Of a stretch of DNA of 64,000 nt, positions 4,866-62,092 are shown piece by piece. The translations under genes were made by a program, and so were the position numbers. The notes under the pieces are model-generated. The model ran no database searches, was not told where the DNA came from, and saw only the letters and a list, made by a program, of their open reading frames with translations. Each line of letters opens with the position of its first letter. The stretch's first letter is position 1. Origin of the DNA: Flammeovirgaceae bacterium UBA1842. GTDB taxonomy: Bacteria; Bacteroidota; Bacteroidia; Cytophagales; Cyclobacteriaceae. Location of the stretch: NCBI GenBank assembly GCA_002338655.1, contig DDIU01000049.1, positions 2,830 through 66,829 of the forward strand, read 5' to 3'.

Positions 4866-5630
4866 TTATTTCGCCTTGAAATCGAAGCTTTTTGTTTCAT
4901 AGCTATAGTCATGTGGATTATAGGTACGTTCTGAACAGTGTACATTATTGTCATTATCCACCAATATTACTGTTGAACATCGAGAGCCATAATTTTCACT
5001 TTTTATAAACATGGGTGACAACATAGCCTCTTTTTCATATCCTACTCCAGTATCTGGAAGTTGATTGTCAGGTGCTTTCAGATCATCATAAAGTGTCGCA
5101 AAAAGATGTTCAGCCGTAATTTCATTATTGGCAATCACCTTTTCAACCTTCTCTTTTCCTTTAATTACCTTAGGCCAGGGCGTATTAAACAGGGCGTTGC
5201 TCAATCCATGGACACCTGCTTTGATTTTATGAACGCCTTTTTGGTAGTTTCCATAATATTGAAGTTCATCAACATCACCACAGATAATATTGAACCCATT
5301 GTAGTTATTGCCTTTTTGTGCAACATTTTCCAAGTATTGAGAAGCATCTATTCCCTTTTTCAAATAATCAGAAACCAAATGCCCCCGACTGGGTGCATTG
5401 GGCTTAATATTTTTCAAGTCTCTATAATTGGTCAGTAAGCTTATCTTTCCCGCAGTAGTCAAACCTAGCCATGTACCTCCAGCTTCCAAGTCCTTTCCAG
5501 CCAGGATACTCCTATCCTCCTCCCAAAAATCAAGTGGTTTAGTTGGTCGACCGTAAAATTCATCCCGGTTAGCCGCTATTATCAGCTTATAGGTGGGGTG
5601 TACTTTGTAACCAAGTAAAATCAAACACAT
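4866..5630 (-). CDS. NRDE/TANGO2 family protein
   Basis: N-terminal MCLI, ANRDEFYGRPT, GGTWLG, LTNYR and YGSRCST. Confidence 0.93.
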   Translation of the reverse strand: MCLILLGYKVHPTYKLIIAANRDEFYGRPTKPLDFWEEDRSILAGKDLEAGGTWLGLTTAGKISLLTNYRDLKNIKPNAPSRGHLVSDYLKKGIDASQYLENVAQKGNNYNGFNIICGDVDELQYYGNYQKGVHKIKAGVHGLSNALFNTPWPKVIKGKEKVEKVIANNEITAEHLFATLYDDLKAPDNQLPDTGVGYEKEAMLSPMFIKSENYGSRCSTVILVDNDNNVHCSERTYNPHDYSYETKSFDFKAK

Positions 5631-54243: not shown

Positions 54244-55470
54244 GTGACTCATAAAAATATCTTTATAAAAAGGAAAAATGATTTTCAAAATCTGATCATT
54301 AGCCTTCCTGCTTCGAAGAGCATATCCAATCGTGCATTGATCATTGAAGCTTTGAGCAAGGGTGACTCTGAGCTGTTCAATTTATCCAGTGCCAGGGACA
54401 CGCAGACCATGTTGCGGCTATTAAAAAGCACTGAACAAGTGTTGGATGTGCTGGATGCCGGGACCACCATGCGATTTCTCACGGCCTTTTTTACAATAAA
54501 TGGTCATAACAAAACCCTCACGGGATCCAATAGAATGAAACAAAGGCCCATTGGTATATTGGTTGATGCATTGCGTGCAATTGGTGGGGATATAGATTAT
54601 TTAGAAAATGAAAATTATCCACCTATAGCCATCAATGGATTTAGCGATCTCAACCTGAAAAGCTTATCGATAAAAGGAGATGTAAGTAGTCAGTATATTT
54701 CTGCCTTAATGATGATTGCTCCACTTTTGAGCAATGGACTCATTATACATCTGGAAGGCAAAATAGGAAGTAGGCCTTATTTGGAAATGACCGCATCGGT
54801 AATGTCATCATTTGGAGTGAATGTGAGCTTCTTAGGACAAACAATGGACATTAGACCACAATCGTACAAGGGTTGTGAATATGTTATTGAGCCAGACTGG
54901 TCAGCGGCTAGCTATTGGTATTCATTCGTTGCTTTAAGTAACAGTTCGTCCATCACAATCAAGGGGCTTAGATTACCTTCCATTCAAGGTGATTGTGTAT
55001 TGGTAGAAATGATGAAGTCTTTAGGTGTGGACACCACATTTACTGATAAAGGAGCTATATTAAGCAAGACTACTTTTGTGAAAGATTTCTCATTTGATTT
55101 TACTGATTGTCCTGATCTGGCGCAAACTGTAGCTGTAATCTGTGCGGTAAAGGGCATTCGGATAAAGATGACTGGTTTAGAAAGTTTAAGGATAAAAGAA
55201 ACAGATAGGATCAGCGCACTTCAACAGGAGTTAAAAAAAATTGGGGCGGAATTAATACAACATAGTAACTTCTGGAGTGTAAGCCCCACAAATAATATTC
55301 CCAAAGAAGTATTTATAAATACCTACGATGACCACAGGATGGCCATGGCTTTTGCACCGCTTGCCATGCTTATGGATGTAAATATTGAAGATCCAGACGT
55401 GGTTAATAAATCTTATCCCGGATTTTGGGAAGACCTGAAATTGGTTGGAATCACTTCAGTTCGAAGTTGA
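54244..55470 (+). CDS. aroA: EPSP synthase
   Basis: LPASKSISNR, AGTTMRF, SSQYISAL, DCPDL, KETDRI and DDHRMAM. Confidence 0.96.
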   Translation: MTHKNIFIKRKNDFQNLIISLPASKSISNRALIIEALSKGDSELFNLSSARDTQTMLRLLKSTEQVLDVLDAGTTMRFLTAFFTINGHNKTLTGSNRMKQRPIGILVDALRAIGGDIDYLENENYPPIAINGFSDLNLKSLSIKGDVSSQYISALMMIAPLLSNGLIIHLEGKIGSRPYLEMTASVMSSFGVNVSFLGQTMDIRPQSYKGCEYVIEPDWSAASYWYSFVALSNSSSITIKGLRLPSIQGDCVLVEMMKSLGVDTTFTDKGAILSKTTFVKDFSFDFTDCPDLAQTVAVICAVKGIRIKMTGLESLRIKETDRISALQQELKKIGAELIQHSNFWSVSPTNNIPKEVFINTYDDHRMAMAFAPLAMLMDVNIEDPDVVNKSYPGFWEDLKLVGITSVRS

Positions 55471-56231
55471 TGAAGGTAATTAGCTGATTTCAATAACCGG
55501 CTACCATACCAAGAGAACATTTCACCATCCACAAGGTACACCTGGGATTTTTTAAATTCCTGCTGAAAATTTCTCAAATGTTTCTCACGGAAAGGAAAAG
55601 GCTCTGATGAAAGCAATATAATATCGGGATCGATTGTGCGAATCCCTTCAGCAGTGACTTCAGGGTATCTTTGATGATGTATAGCATTGACCAACCCAGC
55701 CTTTTTGAGCATTTCGTCTATAAAAGTATCCTTGCCTACTACCATTATCGGATCATTCCAAATTAAATATAGTACAGAGAGTGGTTGATAAGTTGGTAGT
55801 TGCTCAAAAGAGAGTTTGATATTTTTACTAAGTGCTTTTGCTTTCTTTTCACAATTAATAAGGCGACCTACCTCATTGATCATTTCTAATGAATCAATCA
55901 AATTAGAGATATCACTCATCCACACAGGGTATTTTTTCTTCAATTGGTCGATACCTTCTTTATAATTTTCTTCCTTGTTGCCAATGATCAAATCTGGTCT
56001 GAGTTGATCAATCATATCAAAATTAAAATTTTTTGTTCCTCCGATTATCTCCACCTTTTTTACCTTATCAGCTGGATGGACACAGAATTTTGTTAAGCCC
56101 ACTATGTTGCTTTCAAAACCAAGATCAAAAAGAAGTTCCGTTTGGGAAGGGACGAGGGAAATGACCCGTATGGGAGTTTGAGGCACCCCTACCTCAAACC
56201 CCATTTGGTCAATAAATATTCTTGCCGCCAT
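55413..56231 (-). CDS. Helical-backbone metal receptor (BtuF-like periplasmic-binding fold)
   Basis: RVISLVPSQTELL, VGLTKFCVHP, GGTK, KEEN and DGEMFSWYG. Confidence 0.85.
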   Translation of the reverse strand: MAARIFIDQMGFEVGVPQTPIRVISLVPSQTELLFDLGFESNIVGLTKFCVHPADKVKKVEIIGGTKNFNFDMIDQLRPDLIIGNKEENYKEGIDQLKKKYPVWMSDISNLIDSLEMINEVGRLINCEKKAKALSKNIKLSFEQLPTYQPLSVLYLIWNDPIMVVGKDTFIDEMLKKAGLVNAIHHQRYPEVTAEGIRTIDPDIILLSSEPFPFREKHLRNFQQEFKKSQVYLVDGEMFSWYGSRLLKSANYLHQLRTEVIPTNFRSSQNPG

Positions 56232-56266: not shown

Positions 56267-57416
56267 TTAATTATTCAAAAGTAAAACTCCCGTTGAAGGA
56301 ATTTTTGAGTTTAAAAAATTAGGTATCGTTATGGTAAAGGTTGTCCCTTTACCATACTCAGACTGCACCTGAATTTGTCCACCAAGTCTATCAACTGTAT
56401 CTTTTACAATGTACAAGCCCAAACCAGAACCTTTAGCATTTTCATCTGCTCTGTAAAAGATATCGAAGATATTAGACAGGTATTGCTGTCTGATTCCGAT
56501 ACCATTATCTTCCACTTTAATCACACACTCGTCAGGCGTAACCTGCACTTTCATGTTAATAAATTGATTAGACTTCGTCTTATCACTGTATTTTAACGCG
56601 TTGGAAATTACGTTTGTTAGAATCGTTTTAATTCTGACAGAATCTGAATACAAATCAGAAATCCTGTTTAGTGTATAATCTATTTTAATATGTTGAGAAT
56701 TATGGAAATTTGTGAGCTGCCTTAATTCACCTTTTATTATATCGTCTAGATTTATTACTTCATTTTTCACCGCCAGCTTCTCATTTCGATAAAATGCTGT
56801 TTATATCTTCAATGAAATTATCAAGTTGACCAAGGCTACATTTGATCATCTTTAAATAATCATGTTTGCCTTTATCGGGATCAATTTCCGCCAACTCCAC
56901 AAGTCCCAAAGCCGATAGCAATGGTGCCCTTAAATCGTGGGATATCTTATAAATAAATTGATCCAACTCATTATTGGCTTTAAGCAATTTTTGCTCAGCA
57001 AGCTTTCTGTCAGTTATATCATGGAGGTTAATAACCAGTCCACTTACTTCCTCGTTGCTTAGTAGATTTGAAATTGTAACATCGAAGTATACCGTTCTGT
57101 TATTCTTTGAATGAATACAGATTTCAGTGAATTTATCTTCTGATGAGCCAGTATTGTGTTCAACGAATCTTCTTAGGGATGTTTCCTTTGCAGGATCAAT
57201 AAATTCAAATAAACTTTTGCCAATTGCTGTTTTTGGCATCATCCCCAAAACCTTAATTACCGAGTGCGTGATATACTTTATTGTATAATCCGCACCGGTA
57301 ATTAATATTATGTCATTTGATTTTTCAACAATAGATTTAAACATTTCACCTTCAATATCCCCCACTCCAAATTCATCTAAACCGCAAAAATCAAAATCAC
57401 TTTTAAATCCAACCAT
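56267..57416 (-). pseudogene. PAS-HisKA-HATPase histidine kinase split by a 1-nt frameshift
   Basis: ORF 56781-57416 has PAS and the H-box SHDLRAP. ORF 56267-56770 has N/G boxes. Removing one A at 56800-56802 fuses them as EDITAFYRNEKLAVKNE. Confidence 0.8.
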
Positions 57417-57450: not shown

Positions 57451-57972
57451 CTATATAAGTATTGCCATAGCTGACAACTGACCACTTACCTTCAAGTTTG
57501 ATTGGTCAATAGTTTTTTGATTTAACTCAAAAGCTAATTTGTTGTTTACAGTTTTAAAATTAATGGCACTACCTTTAAGGCCTAACCCGGGATAATCAGT
57601 AATAGTTAATGCTGAATAGGATTTTACCTTACTGTTGATGGCATCAAATGATTTTCCTTGATCCTTACCAATGTATATGATATGGCATTTTGAAATAGCA
57701 GCCACAGATTCAAATTTCTTAACAACAAATTTCTTATCTCCCCTCAATTTACCATCATACCATGTCTTTAAGGTATTGTAAACTTCATCTTCACCTATAA
57801 CCCCTATCACGAAATCTTGAGAAGGATCATAATCTGGCCACTGGATGTACTTTACAAAATTGTAAATCATCATTGAATGGATCTCATAAATTGAACGTTC
57901 ATTACCTGCTGTACCGACAAAAGAAACGAACATTGCTAATGTTAATGCTAAGCTTGAAATAATTTTTTTCAT
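57451..57972 (-). CDS. YfiR/HmsC (DUF4154) family exported protein, copy 1
   Basis: Signal peptide, MIYNFVKYIQWP, CHIIYI, LTITD, INF and LKVSGQLSAMA. Confidence 0.88.
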   Translation of the reverse strand: MKKIISSLALTLAMFVSFVGTAGNERSIYEIHSMMIYNFVKYIQWPDYDPSQDFVIGVIGEDEVYNTLKTWYDGKLRGDKKFVVKKFESVAAISKCHIIYIGKDQGKSFDAINSKVKSYSALTITDYPGLGLKGSAINFKTVNNKLAFELNQKTIDQSNLKVSGQLSAMAILI

Positions 57973-58015
57973 GTTATAATTTGTTAATAAACTTTTTGGA
58001 CAATACGTGTTGGCT

Positions 58016-58032
58016 TACAAACGGAGTGCCAA
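58016..58032 (-). promoter_or_regulatory. Sigma54 -24/-12 promoter
   Basis: Minus strand reads TTGGCAC-TCCGT-TTGTA, with canonical spacing and GT instead of GC at -12. Confidence 0.6.
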
Positions 58033-58114
58033 AAAATATTCATCAATCAAATCGCTTATTTAACGCATTAAATGGCCTTTTTGAAACATTTAGGTGGTTT
58101 CTATTAATTGATAT

Positions 58115-58154
58115 AATTCACGATATATCGTGAATTCCCAATATATCGTGAATT
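58115..58154. promoter_or_regulatory. Tandem enhancer (UAS) palindromes
   Basis: Perfect 22-bp palindrome AATTCACGATATATCGTGAATT (58115-58136) and an overlapping copy with 2 mismatches (58133-58154). Confidence 0.65.
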
Positions 58155-61100
58155 ATGGACGTTGGATTTCCAGTTTTTTCATCCGGCTTTCAAGGGTCGT
58201 GGGTTTAAGGCCGAGGATTTGTGCAGCACCGTTCTCTCCACTTATTTTCCAGTTTGTTTTTTGCAACACTTTTATAATATAGTTGCGCTCTACTTTACTC
58301 AGGCTTTCAAGCTTCTCGTCAGAAGGCAAGGCTTTTTGGTTGGTCATGAACCAGTCCCCGAGCTTAAGCTGATTTGAGGGGCTAATTATTAGTGCCCTTT
58401 CTATGATATTTTCCAATTCACGCACATTACCCGGCCAGTTATATTTTTCCAGTTGGTTGATAATGCTTTGAGGTATTTTATTGATCTGTTTACCAAGTTT
58501 CAAATTATATTTTTGCACAAAGTGGTTAACCAATAATCTAATATCATCTTTCCTGTTTCTAAGTGGTGGCACATTTATAGGAAAGACATTTAACCTGTAA
58601 TAGAGATCAGAGCGGAATGTGCCTTCTTCAACCGCCTTCCCAAGGTCTTTGTTAGTAGCTGCTATCAGCCTTACATCAACATTAATGGTCTTAGTGCCCC
58701 CCAACCGTTCGAACTCCCCTTCCTGCAACGCACGAAGTAGCTTGGGCTGAAGTTCCAAGGGCATTTCGCCTACTTCATCAAGAAAAAGTGTCCCACCGTT
58801 GGCCAATTCAAATCGTCCCTGCTTCATGCCAGTAGCCCCTGTGAAGGCTCCTTTTTCATACCCAAACAGCTCACTTTCAATTAACGTTGCCGGTAGTGCA
58901 GCACAATTAATCTTAATTAATGGCTTGTCTTTTCTCAAGCTCAAATTATGAATGGCCTTTGAGATTACTTCCTTACCAGTTCCAGTTTCACCCAAAATAA
59001 GTACTGTGGATGCGGTTTTGGCCACATGTTCCATCTCAATCAATACTTTCTTGAAGTTCTTATCCTGACTGATGATATTTTCAAAATTATCTCCGGATTC
59101 AATTTCTTCCTTCAAATAAATATTTTCCGCCTCAAGCTTATCCTTAAGATTCTCTACTTCTTCGAGTGCATCCTGCAACTCAATGTTAGTCTTTGAAAGC
59201 TCCATGGTCCTGTCTTTAACCTGTTTTTCAAGACTGTCATTCATCTGTTTAAGACTAGTTTCAAAATTTACCCTTTCAATAGTATTGATGATTACCTCTG
59301 CCACCAATTTCAGTAGCACTATGTCATTGATCGACCAATTTTTGGTCTGTTCAGAGTCAAACCCAAGAAATCCATAGGTCCTATTTTGAACGACCATGGG
59401 TACATTAAGCATAGATTTTATGCCATGATGATGAAAAACATCTTTGAATGTAGCTATATCCTCCTCTGTATCATCTATATCTGGAATAAGTAATAATTTT
59501 TTACTGTCCAGCAACTCAAATGGCCATGGGTAATCTATTCGCAGAACGTTTTGAAAATCGGATTTCAGCGGAATTATGTTTTCAGCCACCCATTCATGTG
59601 TGGTAGAAGCAGATTTACCATCATCGCTTAATTTAAAAATATAGCTTCTATCAGCAATAACATGCTGACCTATTTTTGAAAGAGCCCAGTCAATATTTTC
59701 AGAAAGATTAGCTGCACTGGCGTTGATAAATCTGGACGAAATATCAGATACCAACCCTTCTAGCTCAAGCCGGATTTTTAATTCACTTTCTATTCTCTTT
59801 CTTTCCAGTTCCAACCCTATACGATTGGCACTGATTTTCAGCAATGATTCCACCCAAGGTCTCTTTTCCATAGGTTTATCATCAATCACAAAAAAATGTC
59901 CGATTAACCTTTTTCCAGAATCATGAACCGGTACACCCAAATATCCCTCTGCTTTTATATGCTGAAGAAAACTGTCTCCGGGAAACTTTGATGCCACTCC
60001 CTCCCTATAATAGGTCAACCCTTCTTTAAATACCCTTTCACTAGGAACTCCATCTACCTTTATCCGAAATGGAGCCTCAAAATGACCCTTGTCCCACAAG
60101 GTTATAATCTCTATTTCCTCCTGACTGTGATCTAATATTTGAGAGATACCTACACACCTAGCATTCAATATAGAGGCCGTTTGCTCTATAAAATTTGGAA
60201 TGAAATCCATGTGAGACTTGGAAAGTGCCCCCTCAAGCATCTGGCTTAATGTTTTTTCAATATGCTTTTCTTCAGAAATAAGCTGAATAATGACAAATAT
60301 TCCTTCCTCCTGATCCATTGAAAAATACGAAGCTGATACTTCAGCGGCCATCGATTCCCCCCTGCTGTTGCTGAAAATCAAATGGTCGGTCAGTCCCATT
60401 TTGTTTTTCATTACAGCATTGAGCAATTCATCTATTACTTCGTGCTGACCTGGCAAAAATGATGATATTTTATCCCCGATCAATTCCTGTTCACTTACAC
60501 CAAGTAGTTCTGCTGTTTTAGCATTTGTCTCAGCTATGGTCTGTCCCTTAGATTCAAGAACAATAATGGCATCATTTGAAAATTTCAGAATGTTTTGAAA
60601 TTTTACCTGACTATAAGCAAGTGCTTGCTTCGATTGCTCTACAAAATCTTTATGGATTTTTTTATTACGATTTTCAGCTTCGATCCTATCCGTGATGTCT
60701 AGGCTGCTGCCTATCATTCTGGTTGCCTTTCCTTTATCATTTCTTGATAGCACAATGCCTCGGTCTTTAAACCATCTATATTCACCTGATTTTAGTTTCA
60801 ATCGGTGCTCTGACTCATATTTTTCTGTTAGCCCTTTCAAATGATCCTGTAACCTTATTCTATATTTGTCAATGTCATCGGGATGAATGATATCCTCTAG
60901 CCGATCAAGGAAATGGAGCAATTCCTTCTGCTGATAACCTAGATTATCGGCAAACTGTTGGCTAAAAACAGTATTGCCAGAGCTAATATCCCAATCCCAA
61001 ACACCTTCATTTAAAATTTCAAGACCCAGCTTCCACCTTTCATGGTTCAAGCGGATTTCCTGTTCCATTTGCCTTTTGGAACTTATATCCGTGATAAAAG

Positions 61101-61437
61101 AGCAGGCAAATTTATTTCCTTCGAAGTCAATGATATAGGAGATGATTTCAACAGGGATTTCATTGCCGTCTTTTGTTAGCTGAGTAGTCTCAAGTACCAA
61201 TTTTTCTTTTTCGACTAGCTCATCAAAATGCAGCTTAAAGCTCTTAATGGAAAATTCAGGGTTTATTTCAGGCACTTTACTGCCCACGAGCTCTTTATTG
61301 GTATACCCCAGCATACTACAAGCAGCCTTATTGACATGGGTGATTTGGGCGTGTGAATTCACCCAATATATTGCAATGGGGGCACTTTCTATTGTAAAAT
61401 GAGCCAGACGTTCGGAAATGGCGTTGGCTATATTCAT
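58153..61437 (-). CDS. Sigma54-dependent enhancer-binding protein (3 PAS, 2 GAF, AAA+, Fis HTH; FhlA-like)
   Basis: GETGTGKE, intact [24 protein letters not shown] and [19 protein letters not shown]. Confidence 0.93.
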
Positions 61438-61570: not shown

Positions 61571-62092
61571 CTATATCAGAATAGCCATCGCTGCCAATTG
61601 ACTGGAGGTTTTCAGCCCAGCTTTATCCATTGCGGCTTGATTGAGCTCAAACTTCAGCCTTCCATCAATGACTTTAAAATTAATACAGCTGCCTTTTTCC
61701 CCTAAACCTCTTTTATTGGATACCGTAAGCGTGGCATTTGACTGTATTTTTGCCAATACTTCTTCAAATTGATTGCTGGCACTTGCACCTACATACAATA
61801 ATTGGCAATCAGTAACCTCTGAGGCTGAATTGAACTTTTTAATTATAAATTTCTTCCCTCCACGTTCTTTGTTGCCATACCAAGTGTTCAATGTATTATA
61901 AACATCATCGTCCTTTAGAACACCTATTACAAAATCTCCAGAGTTCTTATCTCCGGGCCATTGGATATACTTCAAAAAGTTATATATCATCATGGAGTGA
62001 AGCTCATGTTCCGCACGACTTTGAGCATGTAATGTATTGTTGATAAACAATACTGAAAAGACTAGTAAAAAACTGATTCTGATAGATTTCAT
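61571..62092 (-). CDS. YfiR/HmsC (DUF4154) family exported protein, copy 2
   Basis: Signal peptide, MIYNFLKYIQWP, CQLLYV, INF and LKFELNQ. Confidence 0.88.
   Translation of the reverse strand: MKSIRISFLLVFSVLFINNTLHAQSRAEHELHSMMIYNFLKYIQWPGDKNSGDFVIGVLKDDDVYNTLNTWYGNKERGGKKFIIKKFNSASEVTDCQLLYVGASASNQFEEVLAKIQSNATLTVSNKRGLGEKGSCINFKVIDGRLKFELNQAAMDKAGLKTSSQLAAMAILI

Follow-up and report, generated by a model that had tools for sequence, protein, structure and literature searches.

A predicted single-target sigma-54 regulatory module with tandem enhancer sites in the genus Fulvivirga

In a 64,000-nt stretch of the genome of Flammeovirgaceae bacterium UBA1842 (contig DDIU01000049.1, positions 2,830 to 66,829; hereafter the window), a gene for a sigma-54 activator, or bacterial enhancer-binding protein (bEBP), is followed by two adjacent inverted repeats at its stop codon, a -24/-12 promoter-like sequence and a YfiR-like gene. 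We propose that, in the genus Fulvivirga, these elements make up a sigma-54 regulatory module with a single target, a reading to which we assign a probability of about 0.8 based on the sequence and its comparison between genomes. All parts of the module are present and, except for a downstream kinase gene, intact, and both sequence and spacing are conserved. A preceding annotation made from the letters of the window alone (the sequence-only reading) had suggested the same logic of activator, tandem enhancer and -24/-12 promoter, which now appears strongly supported by the rpoN gene in the genome, a spacing of 95-97 bp in 11 loci and a tandem motif that is single in the genome.

According to the proposed mechanism, the soluble PAS/GAF activator would bind the two 18-bp inverted repeats through its C-terminal Fis-type helix-turn-helix (HTH). 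Upon a signal at the sensor domains, the AAA+ domain would assemble on the enhancer, and DNA looping over a fixed-length spacer of ~96 bp would bring the activator to the sigma-54 holoenzyme at TGGCAC-N5-TTGTA, where the GAFTGA loop and ATP hydrolysis would open the promoter. Transcription would then proceed from near 58005 through yfiR-B, a PAS histidine kinase gene and probably a gene for a TroA-like binding protein. We infer from sequence and arrangement that this activator binds the two sites and that the promoter depends on sigma-54; start site and operon extent are predictions of the same kind. Coordinates are positions in the window (Table 1), and the activator, the enhancer, the promoter and the downstream genes are all located on the minus strand.

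The activator and its predicted enhancer sites and promoter

The activator gene ends with a TAA stop codon at 58155-58153. A Pfam domain scan of its product identified a Sigma54_activat domain (PF00158; 7.3e-73, residues 788-954), an AAA lid and a C-terminal Fis-type HTH (HTH_8; 2.7e-8, residues 1046-1089), and the GAFTGA loop, described as intact in the sequence-only reading, can be read as 'EKGAFTGA' in the translation. The sensor part contains PAS_9, PAS_3, a third PAS-like region and a GAF domain (5e-13). With respect to the '3PAS-2GAF' architecture that had been suggested, the three PAS domains were recovered but just one GAF domain scored above threshold, as the second GAF-like region (residues ~416-540) matched the model end to end at a sub-threshold E = 0.014. 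The Pfam scan revealed no receiver domain, and no membrane segment was seen by eye; the N-terminus leads straight into the first PAS domain. The cytoplasmic redox or metabolite cue proposed earlier as the signal is conjecture, as nothing points to either. The best-matching NCBIfam models, FhlA (414 vs. a cut-off of 830), NifA (388 vs. 529) and NorR (354 vs. 476), all remained below their cut-offs. Eleven proteins in the genome possess the full sigma-54 interaction domain, among which this activator is the sole large, sensor-type one, the rest having 389-484 amino acids. Sigma-54 itself, the presence of which had been left to be confirmed, is encoded by a single rpoN copy (one Sigma54_DBD match, 185.6 bits) with an intact 477-amino-acid open reading frame that includes region I and the RpoN box.

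Each of the two predicted enhancer sites is an 18-bp inverted repeat with the core ACGA-WATW-TCGT. The coordinates agree with the earlier description of a perfect 22-bp palindrome and a near-copy, offset by 18 bp, at the stop codon; the near-copy differs from the 22-mer at 2 bases. Counted from the predicted transcription start, the distal site is centred at about -138 and the proximal site at about -120; their distances upstream of the -24 G are 114 bp and 96 bp, respectively. Neither the 22-mer nor its 14-mer core has a second occurrence in the 4.09-Mb genome, which as a whole contains 19 perfect palindromes of at least 22 bp. Genome-wide scans with the 22-mer, the 14-mer, the half-sites, ACGA-WATW-TCGT and CACGA-N4-TCGTG yielded no second tandem site, the only other hits being isolated single matches at C1:261976, C1:215120 and C32:29214.

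The predicted promoter begins 83-84 bp beyond the end of the palindrome, for which about 85 bp had been estimated before. Transcription is predicted to start near 58005, ahead of the ATG at 57972. The resulting arrangement can be compared to sigma-54 enhancers in general, which are typically found 70-150 bp upstream (PMC3844500). Within the genome, TGGCAY-N5-TTGN has 72 matches, 12 of which are both oriented and intergenic; three of these 12 are located upstream of other bEBP genes (one on contig C30, two on C32).

Immediately downstream of the predicted start, the transcript would contain a conserved box at about +4 to +18. The place of this box is fixed relative to the promoter and not to the ATG, and it occurs a single time in the genome. 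It might serve a second regulator as its operator. An account of the box as an RNA structure was dropped after RNAalifold returned a leader consensus with zero pairs. We also considered an overlapping sigma-A promoter. The Bacteroidota sigma-A consensus consists of -33 TTTG and -7 TAnnTTTG, and only one pairing of candidate elements exists, in which ~23 nt separate the two and the -7 box is poor, which makes such a promoter unlikely by inspection; a sigma-70 promoter scan is uninformative for Bacteroidota.

Table 1 Features of the locus (window coordinates)
Feature	Position	Strand	Basis or remark
Sigma-54 activator (bEBP), 1094 amino acids	58153..61437	-	Pfam and translation
Distal enhancer site TTCACGATATATTGGGAA (predicted)	58152-58135	-	Abuts TAA stop; right arm degenerate
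Proximal enhancer site TTCACGATATATCGTGAA (predicted)	58134-58117	-	18-bp offset from distal site
Perfect 22-bp palindrome AATTCACGATATATCGTGAATT	58136-58115	-	Proximal site is its core
Sigma-54 promoter TGGCAC-tccgt-TTGTA (predicted)	58031-58016	-	TGGCA and TTG invariant in 11 loci
Conserved box TTGTCCAA-N3-AGTTTA	57988..58003	-	About +4 to +18 of predicted transcript
yfiR-B, DUF4154 (YfiR/HmsC-like), first gene of unit	57451-57972	-	Pfam DUF4154 5e-34
PAS histidine kinase, split	56267..57416	-	PAS-HisKA 56781-57416, HATPase_c 56267-56770 (Pfam)
TroA-like / Peripla_BP_2 binding protein	55413..56231	-	Pfam 1.4e-21; NCBIfam TroA_like 146 bits, above cut-off
yfiR-A, DUF4154 paralogue upstream of activator	61571-62092	-	Pfam 8e-35; absent from the sequence-only reading
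Intrinsic terminator after yfiR-A	61548-61521	-	12-bp stem with 7 GC pairs, then T run

Conservation of the module across Fulvivirga

The locus was compared between this genome and 26 other Fulvivirga genomes. A full-length activator orthologue with 64-94% identity is present in seven of the 26, and three more encode a variant of 919-922 amino acids, the sensor half of which is 38-40% identical while the C-terminal half reaches 65-70%. The gene order was the same in all 11 loci: yfiR-A with its terminator, the activator gene, the tandem sites, the promoter, yfiR-B, the kinase gene and the TroA-like gene. The scan of the orthologous loci that the sequence-only reading had proposed next to that of the genome correspondingly retrieved, in each of the 11, two ACGA-WATW-TCGT sites at the activator stop codon with their centres 18-19 bp apart. 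They are followed by a TGGCAY-N5-TTG promoter of invariant spacing in front of a yfiR-like gene (11/11), and the distance from the centre of the proximal site to the -24 G amounts to 95-97 bp throughout. The leader has a variable length, 41-54 nt when counted between the -12 G and the ATG.

A footprint of the intergenic regions, calculated as mean pairwise identity over the aligned 11 loci, gave values of 0.83 for the tandem sites (core ACGA-WATW-TCGT), 0.43 for the spacer, 0.75 for the -24/-12 elements, 0.41 for positions -11 to +3 and again 0.83 for the box at +4 to +18. The spacer is therefore free in sequence and fixed in length, as a looping enhancer-promoter pair predicts. We regard this diverged spacer of fixed length as the strongest single argument for reading the elements as a probable enhancer and its promoter.

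Three lines of evidence suggest the adjacent activator as the candidate binder of the sites. First, the sites follow the AAA+-HTH half of the protein despite the diverged sensor half in the short variants; second, the tandem motif is single in the genome; and third, the layout recurs at other Fulvivirga activator genes, where both the palindromes and the recognition helices are different ones. The recognition helix of the activator is near-invariant in four aligned orthologues, with at most one change of the R/K or I/M type. In the other cases, the stop codon of the activator gene is likewise followed by one or more palindromes and then by a sigma-54 promoter in the same orientation. Genome G017 carries TTTCTGATATATCAGAAA and a half-degenerate copy before TGGCAC-N5-TTGGG (locus L014, about 1370-1490), and paralogues in G018 and G023 have CACGGCATTTCGTG and a second site before TGGCAC-N5-TTGGT. 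In the genome studied here, ATGGGTATATTATACCCAT precedes TGGCAC-N5-CTGCA downstream of an activator gene on contig C24 (about 85105-85605). The recognition helices of two such activators, NPKTLFSKMEKL and KPSTLRDKMKKF, are unlike that of the orthologues, so that the helices differ in accordance with the palindromes. These layouts represent further candidate activator-site pairs.

Outside the genus, no counterpart of the module was obtained: full-length activator orthologues were seen in Fulvivirga only, and the tandem-site pattern produced one match in 400 other Cytophagales genomes, using a pattern that demanded a perfect first site and also missed the locus of this genome. That single match was judged unrelated, as it has neither an adjacent activator gene nor a sigma-54 motif.

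The alignment also provided several observations on the sites and the spacer. In two genomes with the short activator variant, G003 and G001, the TGA stop codon is located inside the distal site (L038, 5340-5357; L039, about 5040-5057), so that coding sequence and operator overlap. In G019, G015 and G004, the tandem sites are identical to each other within the genome and different between genomes: G015 has TTCACGATATTTCGTGAA twice, G004 the reverse complement TTCACGAAATATCGTGAA twice and G019 the degenerate TTCACGATATATTGGGAA twice (for the positions compare 58117-58152 of the window, 1463-1498 of L003 and the equivalents in L004 and L005). Such identical pairs suggest that the 18-bp repeat has been homogenised repeatedly, with slippage or conversion as conceivable causes. 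About halfway along the spacer, a semi-conserved element consisting of an A-run, G/C and a T-run (e.g. AAAAAGGCCATTTAA) is found at about 58065-58080 of the window, equivalent to alignment columns 100-113. This element might bend the DNA intrinsically or be bound by an architectural protein.

Points against the module and other readings of the palindromes

Several observations weigh against the proposed module. The -12 element is TGT and not the canonical TGC, and the orthologues display TGT, TGG or TGA at this position. The right arm of the distal site is degenerate in this genome (TTGGGAA), and in the relative with 94% identity this applies to both sites; either the sites can do without strict palindromy or they are losing strength in this lineage. 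The offset of 18 bp from centre to centre does not correspond to an integer number of helical turns. In addition, the tandem repeats can form an 18-bp RNA hairpin at the 3' end of the activator mRNA (-22.7 kcal/mol, z = -5.3), and the kinase gene is frameshifted in this genome.

With respect to the -12 element, the 12 oriented intergenic sites in the genome end in TTGT (7), TTGG (4) or TTGA (1) and never in TTGC, and one additional candidate promoter ends in CTGCA. The missing C may thus reflect a lineage-specific preference. The proven sigma-54 promoters of Salmonella pspA and pspG also carry TTGTA at -12 (PMC3844500). TGT is a variant of the -12 element that does not exclude the sequence from the sigma-54 promoters.

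The palindromes might be the operator of another factor, a repressor or a sigma-A-dependent activator, with the sigma-54 activator acting or binding elsewhere. The equally high conservation of the box at +4 to +18 indeed indicates at least one further factor or constraint on the promoter region. We nevertheless consider this reading improbable: the sites remain with the AAA+-HTH half in the variants whose sensor half has dropped to 38-40% identity, and the genome offers no other copy of the motif that could be the target of the activator. Position and tandem layout also agree with those of known enhancers (PMC3844500).

Similarly improbable is a role of the palindromes mainly at the RNA level, where a 3' hairpin would terminate or stabilise the activator transcript and no protein-binding enhancer would exist. 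Such a role would be in line with the stable stem described above and with the position of the repeats, which in all loci coincides exactly with the end of the coding region. However, the terminator scan calls no terminator here, and no U tract follows the hairpin in this genome or, as judged by eye, in its orthologous counterparts. Furthermore, it is the identity of the bases that is conserved, with ACGA and TCGT being invariant, and not their pairing: both copies in the 94% relative contain an A-G mismatch (right arm TTGGGAA). A hairpin also leaves unexplained why the distance to the sigma-54 promoter is fixed at 95-97 bp and why other activator genes have differing palindromes at the same place. 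A dual role, with the repeats being a secondary 3' stabiliser beside their function as an enhancer, is possible.

Finally, chance juxtaposition of a functionless AT-rich palindrome and a TGGCAC-like string might be considered in a genome of 38% G+C, where ~1-2 perfect 22-bp palindromes are expected from composition and 72 promoter-like matches exist, but this appears effectively refuted by the comparative data, as all elements and their fixed spacing were kept in 11 genomes while the spacer diverged to 0.43 identity.

Neighbouring genes and relation to known systems

Within the putative sigma-54 unit, yfiR-B is the first gene. The 'periplasmic YfiR' of the sequence-only reading holds to the extent that the product is a DUF4154 protein with a signal-like N-terminus, as judged by eye from the translation; the assignment to YfiR proper does not, as the true-YfiR model of NCBIfam ('regulatory sequestration protein YfiR') was failed with 35.3 bits at a cut-off of 85. 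The paralogue upstream of the activator gene, yfiR-A, reached 38.3 bits in the same comparison. The uncharacterised TOL_0243 YfiR-like family is nearer, and it is also missed at its cut-off of 125 (yfiR-B, 100.8 bits; yfiR-A, 104.5 bits). A sequence search with yfiR-B matched no solved structure, those of YfiR in the PDB included. The genome, which is 99.99% complete, contains no gene for a GGDEF protein, and no OmpA-like gene is present in the locus, no search aimed at the partner outer-membrane lipoprotein YfiB having been made. The failed true-YfiR model and the lack of GGDEF proteins together exclude a cyclic di-GMP (c-di-GMP) circuit of the YfiBNR type.

The order of yfiR followed by a PAS kinase gene, as noted earlier, is correct, but the kinase is split between two reading frames. 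An alignment to the 382-amino-acid orthologue of the 94% relative revealed a single inserted nucleotide (A at 56795), which is either a real pseudogene mutation or an assembly error. In the three other loci that were examined, the kinases are intact and have 374-385 amino acids. As no membrane segment was seen by eye, the kinase is apparently cytoplasmic, and the scanned open reading frames of the locus did not include a response regulator gene. The TroA-like gene starts 35 bp past the kinase gene, with no terminator called between them, and shows conserved synteny in the relatives; the sigma-54 unit may end with this gene.

On the other side of the activator gene, yfiR-A is 48% identical to yfiR-B and is kept at this position in the relatives. 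No sigma-54 motif was found upstream of yfiR-A. The relatives also possess hairpins equivalent to the intrinsic terminator that separates yfiR-A from the activator gene, and this terminator suggests that the activator gene has a promoter of its own. A third DUF4154 gene, upstream of which no sigma-54 motif was found, is located at C2:221503-221922; the gene after it encodes a product with an N-terminus resembling a membrane segment. Thus, a genome without any GGDEF domain harbours three DUF4154/YfiR-like genes.

Based on this gene content, one may speculate that the two DUF4154 paralogues of the locus are paired, that yfiR-B is made only upon activation, along with the soluble PAS kinase, and that together they modulate a periplasmic or membrane partner other than a diguanylate cyclase. 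A second regulator would then have its operator in the box at +4 to +18, and the promoter would integrate two signals. This scenario is tentative and, taken as a whole, rather unlikely; if true, it would give the DUF4154 family a role outside the YfiBNR paradigm.

In Cytophagales, as in Bacteroidota as a whole, there has been hardly any mapping of sigma-54 regulons and enhancer sites. A 2025 survey of sigma-54 regulons covers Bacteroidota at the level of COG enrichment only (PMC12316311). Our literature search found no DUF4154 or YfiR-like protein tied to sigma-54 or to Bacteroidota. The locus supplies one activator, one candidate operator (ACGA-WATW-TCGT, twice), one predicted promoter and one putative target operon, and the constraint on the spacing over 11 genomes serves as a natural substitute for a mutagenesis experiment. 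It might provide a ready-made and probably orthogonal module for signal-dependent expression in a genetically undeveloped group, as well as an entry point to the function of DUF4154 in organisms without c-di-GMP. As the mechanism is that of a textbook enhancer and sigma-54 promoter, the value of the locus is at the level of annotation and practical use rather than conceptual.

Among known systems, the closest in layout is atoSC-atoDAEB of Escherichia coli, where the activator gene is located directly upstream of the target operon in the same orientation and the regulon consists of this single operon. AtoC binds two adjacent sites of ~20 bp, slightly more than 100 bp upstream of the -24/-12 promoter of atoD. 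AtoC, a response regulator, has a receiver domain and is paired with a cognate kinase, whereas the Fulvivirga activator has PAS and GAF sensor domains and no receiver. Nor are the sites related in sequence, and the two activators have different target genes.

In its C-terminal half, with the domain architecture of GAF, AAA+ and Fis-type HTH, the activator most resembles FhlA and NifA, and like these it would sense a cytoplasmic ligand directly, without phosphorylation. The FhlA model aligns with residues 753-1093 (1.4e-123). Here, three N-terminal PAS domains are added, and the predicted targets have nothing to do with formate or nitrogen fixation.

The variant -12 element resembles that of pspA and pspG of Salmonella and E. 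coli, with TGGCACGCAAATTGTATT and TGGCATGATTTTTGTAAG compared to TGGCACTCCGTTTGTAAG in Fulvivirga (PMC3844500). These promoters come from another phylum and are activated by PspF, which lacks a sensor domain and is under the control of PspA.

Finally, the putative operon resembles Pseudomonas aeruginosa YfiBNR and Yersinia HmsCDE in that its first gene encodes a DUF4154 (YfiR/HmsC-like) protein with a signal-like N-terminus. In those systems the partner is a membrane diguanylate cyclase, whereas the adjoining partner in Fulvivirga is an apparently soluble PAS histidine kinase.

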